Positions 2,691 to 35,636 of a stretch of 38,461 bases of DNA are shown one piece after another. The DNA is from a virus (lineage: Duplodnaviria; Caudoviricetes), in the IMG/VR virus record IMGVR_UViG_3300033485_000043, positions 1-38,461 of that record. The stretch is one strand, 5' to 3'. Positions within the stretch are counted from its first letter, which is position 1; each line of letters begins with the position of its first letter. The notes beneath the pieces are model-generated. The model made no database searches and was not told where the DNA came from. It was given only the letters and a program-made list of their open reading frames with translations. The position numbers were made by a program, and so were the translations under genes.

Positions 2691-4355
2691 ATGGGATTGT
2701 GGAAGGGGATCAAAAAGATATTCGGGTCCGGTTCCTGGTCCGCCAGCGATGATCGCTGGTATGCCCCTTATGTCGGGCCGGAAACCAATGCGGGCGCCAA
2801 GGTGGACCACAATTCGGCCATGGGCATCCCGGCGGTGTGGGCCTGTACCCGGATCATCGCCGAGACCATCGCCAGTTTGCCGTTATTTCTTTATACCCGG
2901 AAGGGCCGGGGGAAGGATCGGGCCGCCAGCCACCCGCTTTACACGCTCCTGCATGACCGGCCCAATCCGGAAATGAGCGCCATGAGCTTCAGGGAAACCG
3001 AGACGTACCATATTTTGCATTGGGGCAACATGTTTGCCGAGAAAGAAATGGACCAGCTCGGTCGCGTCAAAGCCCTGTGGCCATTGCCGCCGGACCGGGT
3101 TGAAGTTCGCCGGGACATGGATACCAATGAAATTTTCTACAAGGTCCGGATAGACAATAGCGGGGAGACCAAGCCCCTGGTCCGATCCCAAATGCTTCAC
3201 ATCCCCGGCCTCAGCTACAACGGCATCGTGGGGATATCCCCGATTACCAAAATGCGGGAGGCCCTGGGCTTCGCCCTGGCGACAGAAGAGTTTGGCGCCC
3301 GTTTCTTTGGGGCCGGGACGCATCCGGGCCTGGTGGTGAGCCACCCGGGAAAGCTGGGGGAACAGGCCCACAAAAACCTCAAAGATTCCCTGGCCTCCAC
3401 TTACGCCGGCCTGGGGAAAAGCCACCGCCTCATGCTCTTGGAAGAGGCGATGAAGGTGGAAAAAATCGGCTTTTCCCCGGAAGATTCACAATTTTTGCAG
3501 ACCCGGGCCTTTGAACTGGCGGAAATCTGCCGGATCTGGCGGGTGCCCCTTCACCTGGTGCAGGAATATTCCAAGGGCACCAGCTACGCCAGCAATGAGC
3601 AGCAATCCCTCGAATTCGTGATCCATACCCTGCGCCCCTGGCTGGTCCGCCTAGAGCAGGGGTACAACAATCAGCTTTTTCTTACCGACCTGGAGCGCAA
3701 GCGGTATTTCTTCGAGCACCTGGTGGACGGCCTGCTCCGGGGGGATATCGCCGCCCGGTACGAGGCCTATACGAAAGGCCGAAACGGCGGCTGGCTCAGT
3801 GCCAATGATGTGCGGGAACTGGAAAACCTTAACCCGCTGCCGGGAGACCAGGGGGACATTTACCTGCAGGCGGTGAATTATGTGGAAGCGGGGACCGAGC
3901 CGGTGCCCCCGGAACCAGTCGGACCTCCTGAACCAATGCCCTTAGAAGAAACCCCGACGGCGGACTATTGGAAAGCTAAAACCTCAGATTTGGAATTAAT
4001 TGTGCCCTATCGCGGCATTTTTACGGATGCCATTGAACAGATCTTAAGTAGACAGGCAAATTTAATTAAAAAAGGGAAAACCGATAATGCCTGGAGTGAA
4101 TCTTCTCTAATTGATTATATGGAAAAGAAGATAACTCCCGTATTAGATTTATTCATTATTAACAATAATGGACAAATAACAGAACAATTTAAGCAAATTG
4201 AGATTAATTGTTATATCCAATATCATCAAAGTAAAGTAACAAGCATTCTGGATCAAAAAATTGATATCGAAGAACTTTCCTCTTATGCCGAAGCAATGGC
4301 GGAAGAAACGATGCTGGCGATACTTGCCAGAATAAGGAGCCAAGACCATGGCTGA
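2691..4355 (+). CDS. HK97-family portal protein with C-terminal extension
   Basis: AVWACTRIIAETIASLPL, LLHDRPNPEMSA, GISPI, SPEDSQFLQTR, NDVRELENLNP motifs. Confidence 0.97.
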   Translation: MGLWKGIKKIFGSGSWSASDDRWYAPYVGPETNAGAKVDHNSAMGIPAVWACTRIIAETIASLPLFLYTRKGRGKDRAASHPLYTLLHDRPNPEMSAMSFRETETYHILHWGNMFAEKEMDQLGRVKALWPLPPDRVEVRRDMDTNEIFYKVRIDNSGETKPLVRSQMLHIPGLSYNGIVGISPITKMREALGFALATEEFGARFFGAGTHPGLVVSHPGKLGEQAHKNLKDSLASTYAGLGKSHRLMLLEEAMKVEKIGFSPEDSQFLQTRAFELAEICRIWRVPLHLVQEYSKGTSYASNEQQSLEFVIHTLRPWLVRLEQGYNNQLFLTDLERKRYFFEHLVDGLLRGDIAARYEAYTKGRNGGWLSANDVRELENLNPLPGDQGDIYLQAVNYVEAGTEPVPPEPVGPPEPMPLEETPTADYWKAKTSDLELIVPYRGIFTDAIEQILSRQANLIKKGKTDNAWSESSLIDYMEKKITPVLDLFIINNNGQITEQFKQIEINCYIQYHQSKVTSILDQKIDIEELSSYAEAMAEETMLAILARIRSQDHG

Positions 4356-5106
4356 TATTATCCCGATGCAACGAGGTTACGAAATCAGGGCGAAAGTCTC
4401 GGAAGCTGAAATCTGGATTTATGAGGAAATCGGCAGCGGCTGGTTCGGGGATGGCTTGTCAGCCAAACAATTCGCGGATGATATCAAAACCCTGGGCAAA
4501 GTCGACAGGATCACGGTGCGTCTCAATTCCCCCGGGGGCGACGTTTTTGATGGGATCGCCATTTATAACATCCTTAAATCCCATTCCGCCCGGGTGATTG
4601 TGAATATTGACGGTGTGGCGGCCTCCATTGCTTCGGTGATTGCCATGGCCGGGGATGAAATCTACATGGCGGAAAATGCCATGATGATGATCCATGAAGC
4701 CTGGACCATGGCCATGGGTAATGCCAGGGAATTGCGGGAGATTGCCGACCGGCTGGAAAAGATCAGCGGGGTGATCCGGGACACTTACGCCAAACGGACC
4801 AGCGAAAAAGCGACGCCGGAGACGATTACCCGCCTTATGGATGGGGAAACCCTGATGACGGCTCAGGAGGCCCTGGACTATGGGTTCGTCGATGCCTTAA
4901 CCGAAGCCCTGAGGATGGCGGCTCATTTCGACCTGGATAAATTCAAGTTCAAAAAGAATCCCCTGGCGGCCCGGGTGCCGATGCAACCGGAAGCCGCGGT
5001 GCCGGATAACGGGATGCCGTTGCAGCCCGATTTTACCTGCTTTGATGAGCCCCTGACCAGGGGCGGAGCAATTATCGCCAGAATCGACAACCACAGGAGA
5101 AATTAA
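4348..5106 (+). CDS. ClpP-type prohead maturation protease
   Basis: LNSPGGDVFDGIAIYN, GVAASIASVIAMAGD, MMMIHEAW motifs. Confidence 0.95.
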   Translation: MADIIPMQRGYEIRAKVSEAEIWIYEEIGSGWFGDGLSAKQFADDIKTLGKVDRITVRLNSPGGDVFDGIAIYNILKSHSARVIVNIDGVAASIASVIAMAGDEIYMAENAMMMIHEAWTMAMGNARELREIADRLEKISGVIRDTYAKRTSEKATPETITRLMDGETLMTAQEALDYGFVDALTEALRMAAHFDLDKFKFKKNPLAARVPMQPEAAVPDNGMPLQPDFTCFDEPLTRGGAIIARIDNHRRN

Positions 5107-24472: not shown

Positions 24473-25012
24473 TCAAACATATTTCCATGTTTTGTTCGTA
24501 ACAATAGAATGAACATTGCTGCGACAAATATTATATTTATCAGACAAATGGCTGAGGCTGTGCCCCGTTTTGTGCAGTTTTCTTATTTCAATTACTTCGT
24601 CAACAGTAAGCTTAGCGCTTGGGTTAGTAGTACCAGTAGTAGCCGTTCCATGCTGAAACCTATCACACCAATTCTTGCTCAGAGTATCCCAACGAAGGTT
24701 ATAAAGAAAGTTATTGGTGGGGTCCCCATCATTATGGCAGGATTCATGTCCGGGAGGACAATCGCCTCTAAAGGCTATCAAAATAACCCGATGCAGGGAA
24801 ACCAATTTTGGTTTTCCATTTTTCCTTACTGGAATTCTCGAATAACCTCTTTTATCAACAATAATGCTAAGGTTTTTTATCTTATAACCAGAGGATGCGA
24901 ATTGCTTAACCGAGCGGGCATTTCCATGGTCGCTGACTTGATAGGTAGGGTATCCAGGAATCTCTTTCCATTGCTCTTGATCCGGACTAAACTGGTAATC
25001 ACTCATGGTCAT
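24473..25012 (-). mobile_element. Free-standing NUMOD4-HNH homing endonuclease
   Basis: EQWKEIPGYPTYQVSDHGNARS (NUMOD4), LHRVIL..CHNDGDPTNN..NLRWDT..N (HNH), AKLTVDEVIEIR HTH; AT-rich, antisense. Confidence 0.92.
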
Positions 25013-31475: not shown

Positions 31476-31697
31476 TCATGGTTGCCAGAGGTAAAGCGCC
31501 GCGGCCGCCAGGAGAATGCAGGCCAGGGCGGCCAGGTAGTCAAGGATGGTTTGCCGGGTGCGGCGGCGGTCCGCCGGGGTGCTGAGATATTCCCGGTTGA
31601 AGTCCCGGAGATAAAGGGCGAGGATAGAAGCCCGTTTTTGGTTTTTGGTTTTTGGTTTTTCGTAAAAGTCAGGCAATGCCGGGGTTAATCGCTTCAT
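31476..31697 (-). CDS. Hypothetical protein with C-terminal TM
   Basis: AAGGAG RBS; contains heptamer repeat coding KPKTKNQK. Confidence 0.6.
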   Translation of the reverse strand: MKRLTPALPDFYEKPKTKNQKRASILALYLRDFNREYLSTPADRRRTRQTILDYLAALACILLAAAALYLWQP

Positions 31698-31750
31698 AAT
31701 CTTGCTCCTTTGTCTTTCCCAAACCTAAAACCTAAAACCCAGAACCTGCC

Positions 31751-31921
31751 CTAACTAATCCTCGCTTGCAGGTAGTGGCCACCCAGACCACGGGCGATGC
31801 GGCGGGCCTGGCGGCCGTCCAGTTCCATAATCAGGGCGGTGCGGATCTCCAAGACCCGGCGCCGCATCCCGGTCCAGGTGGTGCGCATGACATAATAGGT
31901 CTTGCGGATGGGGTGCGCCAT
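31751..31921 (-). CDS. Small basic hypothetical protein (56 aa)
   Basis: AGGAGG RBS before ATG at 31921. Confidence 0.6.
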   Translation of the reverse strand: MAHPIRKTYYVMRTTWTGMRRRVLEIRTALIMELDGRQARRIARGLGGHYLQARIS

Positions 31922-31992
31922 GGGGCCTCCTGAGAAGATGGTTTCAGGTTTCAGGTTCCAGGTGCCAGTTGTGGGCCAAAGCGGGGGCATGG

Positions 31993-32169
31993 TTAATCCC
32001 TCGGGTCGGCCAGGGAGCCCGGGCGGTAGCCGTCCGCCGCCGGGGCGCCAGGAGGTACGGAACTATTCGGGGGAGGCGGGCCTGGCGGCCGCCCCCGGGC
32101 GATGACAAATGAGGCGCAGAGCAGCCAGCCCGCCAGAAAACCGAGGATGGCCCCGGCGTAAAAGGTCAC
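31993..32169 (-). CDS. Small membrane protein, Pro-rich tail
   Basis: GGAGG RBS before GTG at 32169; FYAGAILGFLAGWLLCASFVIA. Confidence 0.55.
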   Translation of the reverse strand: MTFYAGAILGFLAGWLLCASFVIARGRPPGPPPPNSSVPPGAPAADGYRPGSLADPRD

Positions 32170-32381
32170 GGGTCCACCTCCGGGGCCCCGGGCGATGACA
32201 AATTGGGCGCAGAGGAGCCAACCCGTTTGTCTATATCCAATACCCGGAGCAAATCCTGGGTAAGTATATGGATTCTGTCTATGCCTTCCAGGAGCCTCAT
32301 TCCTAAGCGCCAACTCAAGAATGCAGCAACGGCCAGGCTCACACTTCCGATTGCGAATAAAGCGGAATTATAAAGGTCCAT
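32166..32381 (-). CDS. Small membrane protein
   Basis: N-terminal TM; GTGA coupling to next gene. Confidence 0.5.
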   Translation of the reverse strand: MDLYNSALFAIGSVSLAVAAFLSWRLGMRLLEGIDRIHILTQDLLRVLDIDKRVGSSAPNLSSPGAPEVDP

Positions 32382-32480
32382 GGTTTTTCTCTATGGAGTC
32401 CATTAAGGTTATCCTCCTTCCGGCCCCCGGGGTGTGCGCCCAATGGGGCCGGTTCTGGTTAATGGATCATCAGGTTGTAA

Positions 32481-32667
32481 AAGCCTTGCCTTGCCGCGGC
32501 ACGCCGGGCCAACCCCCGCCTCGCCTGCCGTGTCTTGCATCGCCTAGCCGGGCCCCGCCCTGCACCGCCACGCCAGGCCCTGCCTCGCCTGCCTTGCCGG
32601 ACCGCGCCTTGCCCCGCCAAGGCTGGCCTGGTCACGCCATGTCATGCCCGCCGTGACAAACCCAGCT
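32481..32667 (-). repeat. GGC-NN pentamer array 2 (candidate guide-RNA array)
   Basis: Strict 5-nt periodicity with 4-nt GGCA/GGCG phase breaks at 32649-52, 32590-93, 32526-29. Confidence 0.9.
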
Positions 32668-33150
32668 CTACGCGGCTTTGGCCTGAGCCGCTTTGTATTT
32701 CCGCGGCCGCGGGGCGGCCTTTTTCCTAACCACCTTTTGCATTTCGGCAAAGACGCCGGCGAGTTCCTTCAGGTTCTCATATCGGGCCATGAAGGCTTGC
32801 ATGTCCACCGTGGCCTCAGCCAGCAGCGCCTGGCGCAAATCGCCGTCGGCCAGGACCTCCACCATGGCCCGATAGCCGCGGTCATTATAGCGGTCGTCCT
32901 TGAGTGAGACAAAGGCCCGGCATTTGGTTTGCGGTTCCATGGTTATTTGGATGACCGCGACCCGGATAATCTGCCGGGCCTGCTGCAAACGCCAGGCGTG
33001 CGCCGCCTCGGTATCGTCCCAGGTGAAGGCCGCATGCAGGGCCGTGGTAGGGTTTTGAGCGAAAGCCACCACGTCTTCCGGGCGCAGCATTCCCCCGCTT
33101 TGGGCCATGATTTGGTGCAATTCATCCCAATACTTGGCTTTTCTTGACAT
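32668..33150 (-). CDS. Hypothetical protein between the two pentamer arrays
   Basis: AAGGAG RBS; GMLRPEDVVAFAQNPTTALHAAFTWDDTEAAHAWRLQQARQIIR. Confidence 0.85.
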   Translation of the reverse strand: MSRKAKYWDELHQIMAQSGGMLRPEDVVAFAQNPTTALHAAFTWDDTEAAHAWRLQQARQIIRVAVIQITMEPQTKCRAFVSLKDDRYNDRGYRAMVEVLADGDLRQALLAEATVDMQAFMARYENLKELAGVFAEMQKVVRKKAAPRPRKYKAAQAKAA

Positions 33151-33169
33151 AAAATCTCCTTAAAGTTGA

Positions 33170-33392
33170 TTGCCGGCCGTGTCTTGCCAGGCCCAGCCGC
33201 GCCGCGCTCTGTCATGCCTCGCCTTGCCATGCCTGCCGTGCCCTGCCGGGCCAAGCATAGCCCCGCTTGGCCCCGCCGCGCTGTGCCCCGCCATGCCTGC
33301 CGTGTCTTGCCCGGCCAAGCCCCCCCACGCCGCGCATAGCCTGGCCGTGGCAGGCCTCGCCTGCCGCGCCCCGCCTAGCCAGGAGGAAGGCC
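33170..33392 (-). repeat. GGC-NN pentamer array 1 (candidate guide-RNA array)
   Basis: 5-nt periodicity with phase breaks at 33362-65, 33298-301, 33234-37, 33175-78 (64/64/59-nt units). Confidence 0.9.
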
Positions 33393-34076
33393 TTAGGCTG
33401 CGGTTTTAACAAAATCCTCCAAAGGCATCCCTTCCAGCCGGAAGGTGCCCCAACCCATGCCGACGCTGCTGCGGGAATCGGGCCGGCCCTCTCCCAAACC
33501 CACCTGCAGGCCCACACGCACCATGAGATTGCTCACGTCTTTGAGGGAGAATTGATCGGCGTCGAAGGTGATCCGCACCTTAGCTTCCCAGCCCTCATCC
33601 CACATGGCCCGGGCGCGAATATCCATAGTGTTCTGAATCCGTACCGGGTGCTCCACATAATGGGGTTCGCCTTTGCTGATCTTGACAAGAGGTTGGCTGT
33701 CATTTTTATCAAAGCCGTCGGCCTGGATGAAAATTGAGAGTTTGGCCAGGGTCATTTTGAAACCTACCAGGCGGCAGGCCGAAACCATGGCGCTCCGGAA
33801 GGCCCCGGCGGGAATGCCGTACCAGCCTTCCCGGGAAACGTGCTTGCTCTGCTCATAACAGAGTTGGAAGTCTTTGGGCTCCCGCTTTTGTCCCTTCTTG
33901 GCCTGGGACCCGGCCTGTTGTTTGGCCTTGATCTCCTCGGCGGCTTTTTGGGAAAACGCCTGCTGCACATACGGCGCCGTTCCAATGATGGTAAATTCGG
34001 CGATTGACAACCTGGGAGGAGCAATAACTACCTGCGTCCTCGGCAATGTTTCCACGGATTTCTCTTTCTTGGCCAT
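33393..34076 (-). CDS. Stand-alone RAMP/Cas7-like RNA-binding protein (Vipr-like)
   Basis: N-terminal strand EFTIIGTAP, GIPAGAFRSAM (cf. RAMP IPGSSLKG), C-terminal Gly-rich loop GLQVGLGEGRP..GMGWGTF. Confidence 0.75.
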   Translation of the reverse strand: MAKKEKSVETLPRTQVVIAPPRLSIAEFTIIGTAPYVQQAFSQKAAEEIKAKQQAGSQAKKGQKREPKDFQLCYEQSKHVSREGWYGIPAGAFRSAMVSACRLVGFKMTLAKLSIFIQADGFDKNDSQPLVKISKGEPHYVEHPVRIQNTMDIRARAMWDEGWEAKVRITFDADQFSLKDVSNLMVRVGLQVGLGEGRPDSRSSVGMGWGTFRLEGMPLEDFVKTAA

Positions 34077-34251
34077 TTTCGGTTCTTCCTTTCTTTATGG
34101 AGATGCCCGGTTAAAGCCTGGGCTCGGCTTTCTCCCCCTGGCCCTTGCCCTGGTCTCCTTCAACTACAGGTGCGTGGAGGGTCCGGGCCGCCCCGCCGGC
34201 TTCGCTGATGCTGGTAGACCGGCCGGCGGGGGTGGGGTGATTGATGAATCT

Positions 34252-34303
34252 CTTATACCATGCGGTATTTCAGAATAGCAAGAAAAAAAATGCCAGGCGG
34301 AAT
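34252..34303 (-). promoter_or_regulatory. PL-like promoter with two operators
   Basis: TTGCTA-N18-TATAAG with extended TG; operators ATACCATGCGGTAT (34255-68) and ATGCCAGGCGGAAT (34290-303). Confidence 0.7.
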
Positions 34304-34339
34304 ATTTTTATGCAAAAAAAATTGAGGGAGAAGGAAGGG

Positions 34340-34648
34340 CTATTCGTTTATGGTCATTTTACCAATTTCAGATAGGAGGGCCTGGAACTTCTCCTGGGGG
34401 GAATTATAAATATTGAAAAGGCGGGATAAATCTATTCCCAGGCCCAGGGCAAGCGCCAGGATGGTTTTGAGCGGCAAGTTTTCACCCCGGTCACCGCTGA
34501 GGTATCGGCTTATGGTGCCCTGTTCCATCCCGCACATTAGCCCTACCTGTTCTTGGGTGAGGCCCAATTCCCTTATTTTATCCAGGATCGCCTTGATTAC
34601 TGCCGCATAATACTCCTGGACCTTCGCGTTAATGTCATCGGGTTCCAT
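34340..34648 (-). CDS. CI-like XRE HTH repressor (start probably 34648; ORF track extends to 34726)
   Basis: LGLTQEQVGLMCGMEQGTISRYLSG..LPLKTILALALGLG HTH; divergent from cro. Confidence 0.85.
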   Translation of the reverse strand: MEPDDINAKVQEYYAAVIKAILDKIRELGLTQEQVGLMCGMEQGTISRYLSGDRGENLPLKTILALALGLGIDLSRLFNIYNSPQEKFQALLSEIGKMTINE

Positions 34649-34682
34649 GAATTCAATATGACATGGGGCCCCAAAAATATTT

Positions 34683-34734
34683 AATCCGGACGGTATAAAT
34701 TTATCTTGATTTTCAATATTCCGCATGGTATGAA
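34683..34734 (+). promoter_or_regulatory. PR-like promoter with two operators
   Basis: TTGATT-N17-TATGAA with extended TG; operators at 34718-31 (rc ATACCATGCGGAAT) and 34683-96. Confidence 0.7.
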
Positions 34735-34740
34735 GCCTTC

Positions 34741-34941
34741 ATGAGCATGGACTTGAAAAAATATCTGGCCGAGGAAAATATCTCTCCTTCCGCCTGGGCT
34801 AAAAAGGTTGGCATTCCGCAGCCGGTGATAAGCAGGTTTCTGGCTGGGAAACGCGGCCTTTCTTTGGATACGGCCCTACTCATCCAGAAAGCTACCGGCG
34901 GCAAGGTTCGGGTCGAAGATTTGAGCAATGGCACCCCCTGA
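34741..34941 (+). CDS. Cro-like HTH protein
   Basis: LKKYL..ISPSAWAKKVGIPQPVISRFLAGKR..IQKATGGKVRVEDL. Confidence 0.88.
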   Translation: MSMDLKKYLAEENISPSAWAKKVGIPQPVISRFLAGKRGLSLDTALLIQKATGGKVRVEDLSNGTP

Positions 34942-35004
34942 CTCCAAGCATAGACGGCGGCCCTTATGATATCTGTCCAAATATGTTGACCTCTTAGACA
35001 GGAG

Positions 35005-35421
35005 TTGCCTTTTTTGTCCAAATTTCAGGATGACCCCCGTGGCACCGTATCCGATTGGATTCAAAGCACCCTGCTCCGTTCCGGGGTTCCAGTAGCGGAG
35101 ATAGCGGCCAAAATCGGCAAATCTGAAGATTTAATCTATAAATGGGCCAACAAAAACGCCGAGCAGTGCATCCCCGCCCACGCCTTAATCACCCTCATAT
35201 CAACATCTGGCGACCACACCATTTTACGCGAGTTGGCGGAGATGTTCGGGTTTGATCTTCTTCCCAAGCGCATCAGCCTTCCCGCCAACGGCAACCTGCT
35301 GGAAACCCTGAAGGCCCTGGTTAAGGCCCTGGAAGGGGAAGTGGTGGAGGACCGGGAATTTTCCCGGGCGGCGACGGGGCGGTCCGCCGGCCAAACCACC
35401 TTTCCCCGGGAGCGGGAGTGA
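35005..35421 (+). CDS. CII-like phage regulatory protein
   Basis: VAEIAAKIGKSEDLIYKWAN..LITLISTSGDHTILRELAEMFG; follows cro. Confidence 0.7.
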   Translation: MPFLSKFQDDPRGTVSDWIQSTLLRSGVPVAEIAAKIGKSEDLIYKWANKNAEQCIPAHALITLISTSGDHTILRELAEMFGFDLLPKRISLPANGNLLETLKALVKALEGEVVEDREFSRAATGRSAGQTTFPRERE

Positions 35422-35636
35422 TGACGGCAGACACCTGTGCGGCCTGCCGCAATTATGCCGACGCCCTGGAGGCCGAGGCCTACTGCTTCGGCAAGGACGG
35501 GGTGGTGGCCGGCACCGGCTGGTGCGAGGAGTTTGTGCACCACTCCCAGCGGTTTTGCCTGCAAACCGTGGAAGAGCTGGGGCCGGTGCCGCCGGCGTTC
35601 GCAACTAAAGAGGCCGGGCCATGCCGGGGAAAGTGA
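35418..35636 (+). CDS. Small Cys-rich hypothetical protein
   Basis: CAAC..YC..WCEEF; GTGA coupling. Confidence 0.6.
   Translation: MMTADTCAACRNYADALEAEAYCFGKDGVVAGTGWCEEFVHHSQRFCLQTVEELGPVPPAFATKEAGPCRGK

Follow-up and report, generated by a model that had tools for sequence, protein, structure and literature searches.

VIPR systems were published in 2026, and the kind closest to the present locus, the staggered vrRNA array, is described in the Results and in the legend of fig. S18 of that study (10.64898/2026.04.26.720920). Filament formation, triplex formation and repression come from work on SUSP1 and P. fulva, as far as the accessible parts of the two reports go (10.64898/2026.04.26.720920; 10.64898/2026.04.26.720927). 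Small-RNA sequencing confirmed the ribozyme-type and single-guide loci but not the staggered ones, and the natural targets are mostly mobile elements (10.64898/2026.04.26.720920). According to the accessible portion of a further report, host-directed vrRNAs occur in satellites, while other guides are directed against rival vipr genes and vrRNAs and match their own locus less well (10.64898/2026.10.15.759431). Another report, also accessible in part, lists 99 VIPR-like clusters, 21 of which have non-canonical repeats (10.64898/2026.10.21.760802). Among the matches listed in a literature search, VIPR papers other than these 2026 bioRxiv reports were not found.

Here, a phage-borne locus of this type is analyzed. 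Because the class has already been published, the locus itself is no surprise and serves as a test case. Staggered arrays are without experimental confirmation in the original study (10.64898/2026.04.26.720920), and the processing of such arrays could be revealed with a compact cassette that carries six predicted guides.

A minimal locus in a phage genome

The window, that is, the whole stretch of 38,461 nucleotides that was analyzed, is a linear virus record of 38.5 kb with an estimated completeness of 55%. It contains terminase, portal, capsid and tail-like ORFs, read by eye, and an integrase. On the - strand, a 227-aa vipr ORF (34076-33393) is followed by array 1, a 160-aa ORF (33150-32668) and array 2, and the entire cassette with its six predicted guides occupies only 1.6 kb. 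The ORF coordinates agree with the gene and array order given in a preliminary description of this DNA. That description had also seen no CRISPR array, cas1, cas2 or nuclease gene nearby, and the wider survey led to the same picture: of the 33 direct-repeat families in the window, none of the 20 largest was CRISPR-like, PADLOC returned no match for vipr or the partner gene, and no cas operon lies near the locus, which is a minimal vipr and partner locus in a virus. A search of Rfam over positions 31500-35500 gave a single match (E 0.76), outside the locus. A 179-aa ORF at 24473-25012 that appeared HNH endonuclease-like by eye lies outside the locus, at a distance of about 7.5 kb.

The periodic signal is confined to the arrays. 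All positions in the window with at least 5 of 8 in-phase GGY trinucleotides fall inside the two arrays on the - strand, with a maximum of 7. Of 100 windows generated by block shuffling, 76 peaked at 4 and 24 at 5. Contigs from two sequencing runs of other studies match positions 32300-32714, 33183-33333 and 33131-33281 with zero differences, so that array 2 and a large part of array 1 are recovered independently. Since these independent contigs agree without differences, the arrays are not an assembly artefact. No strain variation in the NN dinucleotides was seen in the matched contig pieces from these two runs.

Vipr is a stand-alone RAMP protein

The 227-aa product of vipr (33393..34076, - strand) is a stand-alone RAMP protein with an RRM core, a thumb and a G-loop. 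Residues 28-214 match phrog_4652 (E 2.6e-13), the family that is also matched by the RAMP gene of the SUSP1 VIPR locus (E 1.4e-96). Vipr belongs to a large family, with 5908 proteins at E<=0.001. A sequence search against the PDB gave nothing significant. The AlphaFold (AF2) model, with a pLDDT of 90, is closest to Cmr/Csm RAMP chains (top Z 11.6, rmsd 3.4, 146 aligned residues), so that the RAMP fold proposed from the sequence could be verified on the predicted structure. In a wide VIA search, the best 45 rows consist entirely of Cas chains and chains of CRISPR complexes, and Foldseek yielded 70 matches at E<=0.001, all of which, among those listed, are CRISPR complexes or subunits; the structure libraries used end before the 2026 Vipr structures or show no chain from them. 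Vipr thus shares the RRM/thumb/G-loop fold with the backbone RAMPs of class 1 CRISPR systems (Cmr/Csm, Cas7), with Z scores up to that top value. In contrast to these systems, the window has neither a cas operon nor a repeat-spacer array near the locus, its period is 5 nt and not 6 nt, and pairing would be non-contiguous.

The SUSP1 gene used for comparison was picked by its position between GGY-NN arrays and by residues matching the accessible part of the structure paper (10.64898/2026.04.26.720927): H17, K33, R39, E71, M72, K82, R138, C173, D177, W178 and R179 agree, while T175 of the paper is V in the record. Overall identity between the window Vipr and SUSP1 Vipr is 19%. A profile of 119 homologues nevertheless aligns with SUSP1 Vipr over the thumb and G-loop (hhalign, E 4.8e-5, probability 68%). 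In this alignment, SUSP1 K82, R138, D177 and R179 correspond to K107, R156, E196 and R198 of the window protein, the last three being invariant across the 119 homologues. Alanine changes at K82, R138 and D177 abolish silencing in SUSP1, as stated in the accessible text (10.64898/2026.04.26.720927). SUSP1 W178 is replaced by Gly197 and H17 by Gln, and the G-loop of the window protein differs from that of SUSP1 in an 8-residue insertion as well as in the Gly at the W178 position.

A conserved partner gene lies between the arrays

The second gene of the locus, a vap-like partner of 160 aa (32668..33150, - strand), belongs to phrog_15946, and no known fold was assigned to it. Its AF2 model has a pLDDT of 88; Foldseek gave no match at E<=0.001, and the best VIA score was Z 4.9. 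No Pfam family scored above the cut-off, the PDB gave no clear match and the Atlas neighbours are unnamed. These absent fold matches are no evidence of a new fold. A partner homologue occurs within the flanks of 128 of 146 vipr loci. Profile comparison with SUSP1 Vap1 (phrog_5926) gave no match (hhalign, E 0.32), and a GYR motif is common to both proteins. Judged from sequence profiles, the partner is conserved and shows no recognizable kinship with SUSP1 Vap1, although a remote relationship may exist in view of the common motif.

Two staggered arrays specify six predicted guides

All array elements are on the - strand. Array 1 begins with a leader (33362..33392) made of a pyrimidine-rich stretch, three pentamers and the first GGCA break, the pentamers and the break occupying 33380-33362. 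It continues with predicted guides A (33298..33361) and B (33234..33297), each consisting of 12 pentamers and GGCA, and ends with predicted guide C (33175..33233; 11 pentamers and GGCC). Array 2 has a lead at 32662-32649 with the break GGCG, followed by predicted guides D (32590..32648; 11 pentamers and GGCA), E (32526..32589; 12 pentamers and GGCA) and the terminal F (32481..32525; 9 pentamers). Across units A-F, 48 of the 67 pentamers start with GGC and 49 with GGY, leaving 18 that depart from GGY, and each unit contains 7-11 different NN dinucleotides. Adjacent units abut directly, with a 1-nt overlap and no intervening tail, and inspection by eye revealed no 3' tail recurring from unit to unit.

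GGC-NN pentamer arrays with 4-nt phase breaks had been the central observation of the preliminary description, and both elements recur in these counts, with a break length of 4 nt at all 7 window breaks. The unit length of 11-12 pentamers that it gave applies to five of the six units but not to the last, F, which has only 9. The semi-conserved junction GGCAA-GACAC-GGCA that it described is exact in A and near-exact in C and E, and looser in B and D.

The array grammar is kept in related phages

The expectation that homologues would be flanked by arrays of constant GGY and variable NN was borne out in a collection of 147 loci fetched via the Vipr protein, in which redundant copies were kept and the window's own contig was left out. 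Pentamer arrays lie on the sense strand in 133 of the 147 loci and on the antisense strand in 6; a stricter first parse had given 80/85 and 2/85, respectively. Breaks of 4 nt account for 800 of 869 clade breaks, lengths of 3, 4, 6 and 7 having been penalized equally. Base usage was tallied over 212 internal units: G fills the first pentamer position in 94% and the second in 91%, and C the third in 85%. The entropy of NN, at most 4 bits, is about 3.9 in mid-unit and drops to 3.07 at -1 and 3.49 at +1 from the break. The position of the arrays around vipr and the partner gene varies among relatives, while strand and grammar are kept; in the closest relative, L133 (80% identical), the partner gene precedes vipr (L133:1-770).

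Several variations on this theme were seen. In L012 (~1140-1180) and L133 (~1440-1470), too, vipr is followed by a pyrimidine-rich leader, in which a few conserved pentamers precede the first break. The units of L133 end in the locus-specific GGCAC-TTCAA-GGCA instead of GGCAA-GACAC-GGCA. Three loci (L013:3700-4400, L080:3620-3950 and L009:3645-4030) carry arrays that are far more degenerate (GAC/GTT/AGT) or built on AGC/AAC trinucleotides, with GCAGG-type breaks apparently kept, by eye. The L012 phage has a third pentamer array (L245:5780-6020, record G001), separated from its vipr locus by about 3.5 kb. Cyanophage Cy-LDV1 (BK059895.1) has the same vipr-array-partner-array layout at 3013-4601 (L001) with a Vipr that is 57% identical, and its vipr and partner genes are annotated as hypothetical in GenBank.

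Comparison with described VIPR systems

Like the window, the published staggered VIPR arrays combine a phage-borne vipr with an accessory gene and have units of 9-16 pentamers. According to the legend of fig. S18, their successive units overlap by one base, which equals the 4-nt break of the window, and the text and legends of the paper indicate no difference of kind (10.64898/2026.04.26.720920). The layout is that of a staggered-array VIPR, an already published kind. The preliminary description had pointed to the VIPR architecture, and the published account (10.64898/2026.04.26.720920) bears this out. Its VIPR-like reading is now supported by the RAMP fold, the family link to SUSP1, the arrays of the homologues and the gapped code of the clade described below.

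With the type II VIPR of SUSP1 the locus shares the phrog_4652 Vipr, counterparts of K82, R138, D177 and R179, a two-gene organization and intergenic GGY-NN units. The differences are several. The trinucleotide is mostly GGT in SUSP1, but GGC and more degenerate in the window. SUSP1 units carry a conserved, structured pseudoknot 3' tail and are separated by spacers, whereas the window units abut and have neither. The partner belongs to phrog_15946 and not to phrog_5926, and the window phage is temperate. GGY substitutions abolished silencing in SUSP1, while more than a quarter of the window pentamers (18/67) are non-GGY.

A one-base-skip code and a predicted natural target

The NN frequencies of 338 guides track coding-strand codon positions 1-2 (r 0.76, p 6e-4), as opposed to correlations of -0.21 to 0.38 in the other five registers. 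When 539 guides were compared with the array-masked loci and the window (1.6 Mb), matches at E<1e-3 were obtained for two guides with a 1-nt skip and for none with skips of 0, 2 or 3. A 1-nt-skip code with the skip on the wobble base is therefore supported statistically for the clade, the skip-rule excess resting on two guides in a set of loci that were not dereplicated.

The better of the two (L012:1256-1315) closes array 1 of L012, a phage whose Vipr is 69% identical to that of the window. Its predicted target lies inside the partner gene of the window (32881..32916, - strand, codons 79-90), where 22 of 24 NN bases match, the last 22 consecutively, with the skip at codon position 3 (E 7.5e-5). 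The same guide reaches an equal score with the partner gene of L133 and with that of L026, but only 14/24 with that of L012 itself; just 5 of its 12 trinucleotides are GGY. When the whole of IMG/VR was scanned with an 18-base pattern of this guide, the sole exact match was the already-seen L026 partner gene. None of 90 shuffle rounds reached E 7.5e-5, two reached 9.3e-5, and six gave one match at E<=1e-3 but none gave two. As two rounds came near the observed value, the support is good, not overwhelming. The match suggests that the partner is itself likely to be a target. New here is thus a predicted natural guide-target pair aimed at the accessory gene of this phage. For SUSP1, guides against rival VIPR loci are likewise reported; in the accessible part of that report their targets are vipr genes and vrRNAs and do not include sites within vap, while the L012 guide would target the partner (10.64898/2026.10.15.759431). 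With the 14/24 score of L012's own gene as a built-in non-target control, the pair makes both a VIPR-versus-VIPR conflict via an accessory gene and the tolerance of non-GGY trinucleotides directly testable.

The second guide, found in L018/L019 (array near 4196), matches the Walker A motif of an ATPase-like gene in L017 at 20/22, again aligned to the wobble base. The motif G..G.GK[ST] is spelled by two guides (that of L018/L019 and one of L022 near 4232) compared with a mean of 0.024 in 500 shuffles, a test that was chosen after a match had been seen. A guide of L074 also resembles a Walker A-type motif (17/20).

Targets of the window's own guides were sought by scanning IMG/VR with exact 16-base seeds of guides E, B, C, A and D, which matched 4, 28, 11, 4 and 40 stretches, respectively; in the larger sets, a few protein families recur in redundant copies and make up most of the matches. 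The best full-length scores were 19/22 (E), 19/24 (B), 19/22 (C), 18/24 (A) and 20/22 (D). Some of these exceed the 80% bar used in published work (10.64898/2026.04.26.720920), but a binomial estimate places them at chance level: with 16 bases fixed by the seed, such extensions are expected among that many matches, and none was accepted. A 20-base pattern of guide E had no match in metagenome contigs and, with 3 mismatches allowed, none in 50 VIPR-bearing virus records, a subset of the 84 loci that Vipr had retrieved from IMG/VR, against 1 for the control. In total, the IMG/VR seed scan for guides A-E, extended for E to the metagenomes and the 50 virus records, provided no credible target. No self-target was present in the window (best score 18/24), no close match exists between the six window guides and the other guides of the 539, and a genome scan for linking the phage to a host returned two distant loci only.

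Proposed mode of action and alternatives

Taken together, we are highly confident that the locus is a phage VIPR system, whose two GGC-NN arrays likely yield six guide RNAs that would silence the DNA of rival phages. Vipr would coat each unit with one subunit per pentamer, burying the trinucleotide and leaving the NN pairs to read double-stranded DNA two bases at a time, each third base being passed over. By analogy with SUSP1 and P. fulva, transcription would be blocked and genes of competing phages probably silenced. The 4-nt break corresponds to a one-base overlap in which GGCAG and GGCNN share a G; it may reset the register of the filament and mark the guide boundary. The partner may aid repression as a non-nuclease helper.

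How the guides are released, and against whom they act, allows other readings. It is rather unlikely that the arrays stay uncut and that Vipr coats a long transcript in segments, the breaks only delimiting filaments. No tail or ribozyme is evident, Rfam has no match in the locus, the partner lacks a match to a nuclease fold and the processing of staggered units was inferred, not shown, in the original study (10.64898/2026.04.26.720920). That study nevertheless draws such units as processed RNAs, and the drop in NN entropy beside the breaks (3.07 and 3.49 against about 3.9 bits) suggests a recognized boundary, which speaks for the separate guide RNAs of the preferred reading. We regard it as unlikely that host genes or decoy sites are the main targets of the guides. 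The lack of a phage target for guides A-E and the host-directed vrRNAs known in satellites, reported in the accessible part of that source (10.64898/2026.10.15.759431), would fit this idea; the two best-matched guides of the clade, however, both fall on phage genes, and published natural targets are mostly mobile elements (10.64898/2026.04.26.720920). By analogy and from the two clade-level matches, rival phages are the likeliest targets.

It is extremely improbable that the Cas7-like gene is an orphan and the arrays next to it are coding sequence of low complexity or simple repeats that evolve neutrally. Some reading frames across the GC-rich arrays are open, but a period of 5 combined with 4-nt breaks keeps no frame. 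Moreover, relatives place the arrays differently with respect to vipr and the partner, with strand and grammar unchanged; the entropy of the NN positions is close to its maximum, although 85% of pentamers have C at position 3; and one guide, that of L012, reads a real gene. The notion of translated low-complexity ORFs, considered in the preliminary description, is thereby largely refuted. Within the VIPR interpretation a bolder proposal can be made, which we consider doubtful. The Vipr filament or the partner would recognize the GGCA/GGC break as a signal for processing, so that tail-less multi-guide precursors are cut without Cas6 or ribozymes, as in a forerunner of pre-crRNA processing; the Vipr of this clade, with Gly in place of Trp in the G-loop, would tolerate degenerate trinucleotides; and phages would disarm each other via the partner gene while sparing their own.

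Regulatory context

Upstream of vipr lies a cI-like HTH repressor gene (34340..34726, - strand; Pfam HTH_3, E 7e-8, and PHROG repressors), the start codon of which may be located further in. It is followed by a Cro-like HTH gene on the opposite strand (34741..34941, +; Pfam and PHROG matches). This divergent cI/cro-like pair belongs to a temperate phage. Four related 14-mers (34303-34290, 34268-34255, 34696-34683 and 34718-34731) form two pairs on either side of the cI-like gene. The two operator-like 14-mers upstream of vipr flank a promoter-like site (34255..34303, - strand) in a putative lambda OL/PL-like arrangement; this site was recognized by eye and was not listed by a consensus promoter scan. 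The pairs at 34303-34255 and 34731-34683 are arranged like lambda OL and OR. Going downstream from the cI-like gene, vipr is the first ORF of substantial size on that strand and occupies the place that N has in lambda. The locus would therefore head a leftward early operon controlled by the cI-like repressor, and from this first position it would act after infection or induction and not in the protection of the lysogen. It is likely coupled to the lysis-lysogeny switch.

Two further features border the cassette. The 170-nt leader ahead of vipr (34245-34077) folds into a long GC-rich hairpin and has no Rfam match. Downstream of array 2, at 32093-32225, a 40-nt direct repeat is present in two copies that are 90% identical and 93 nt apart.
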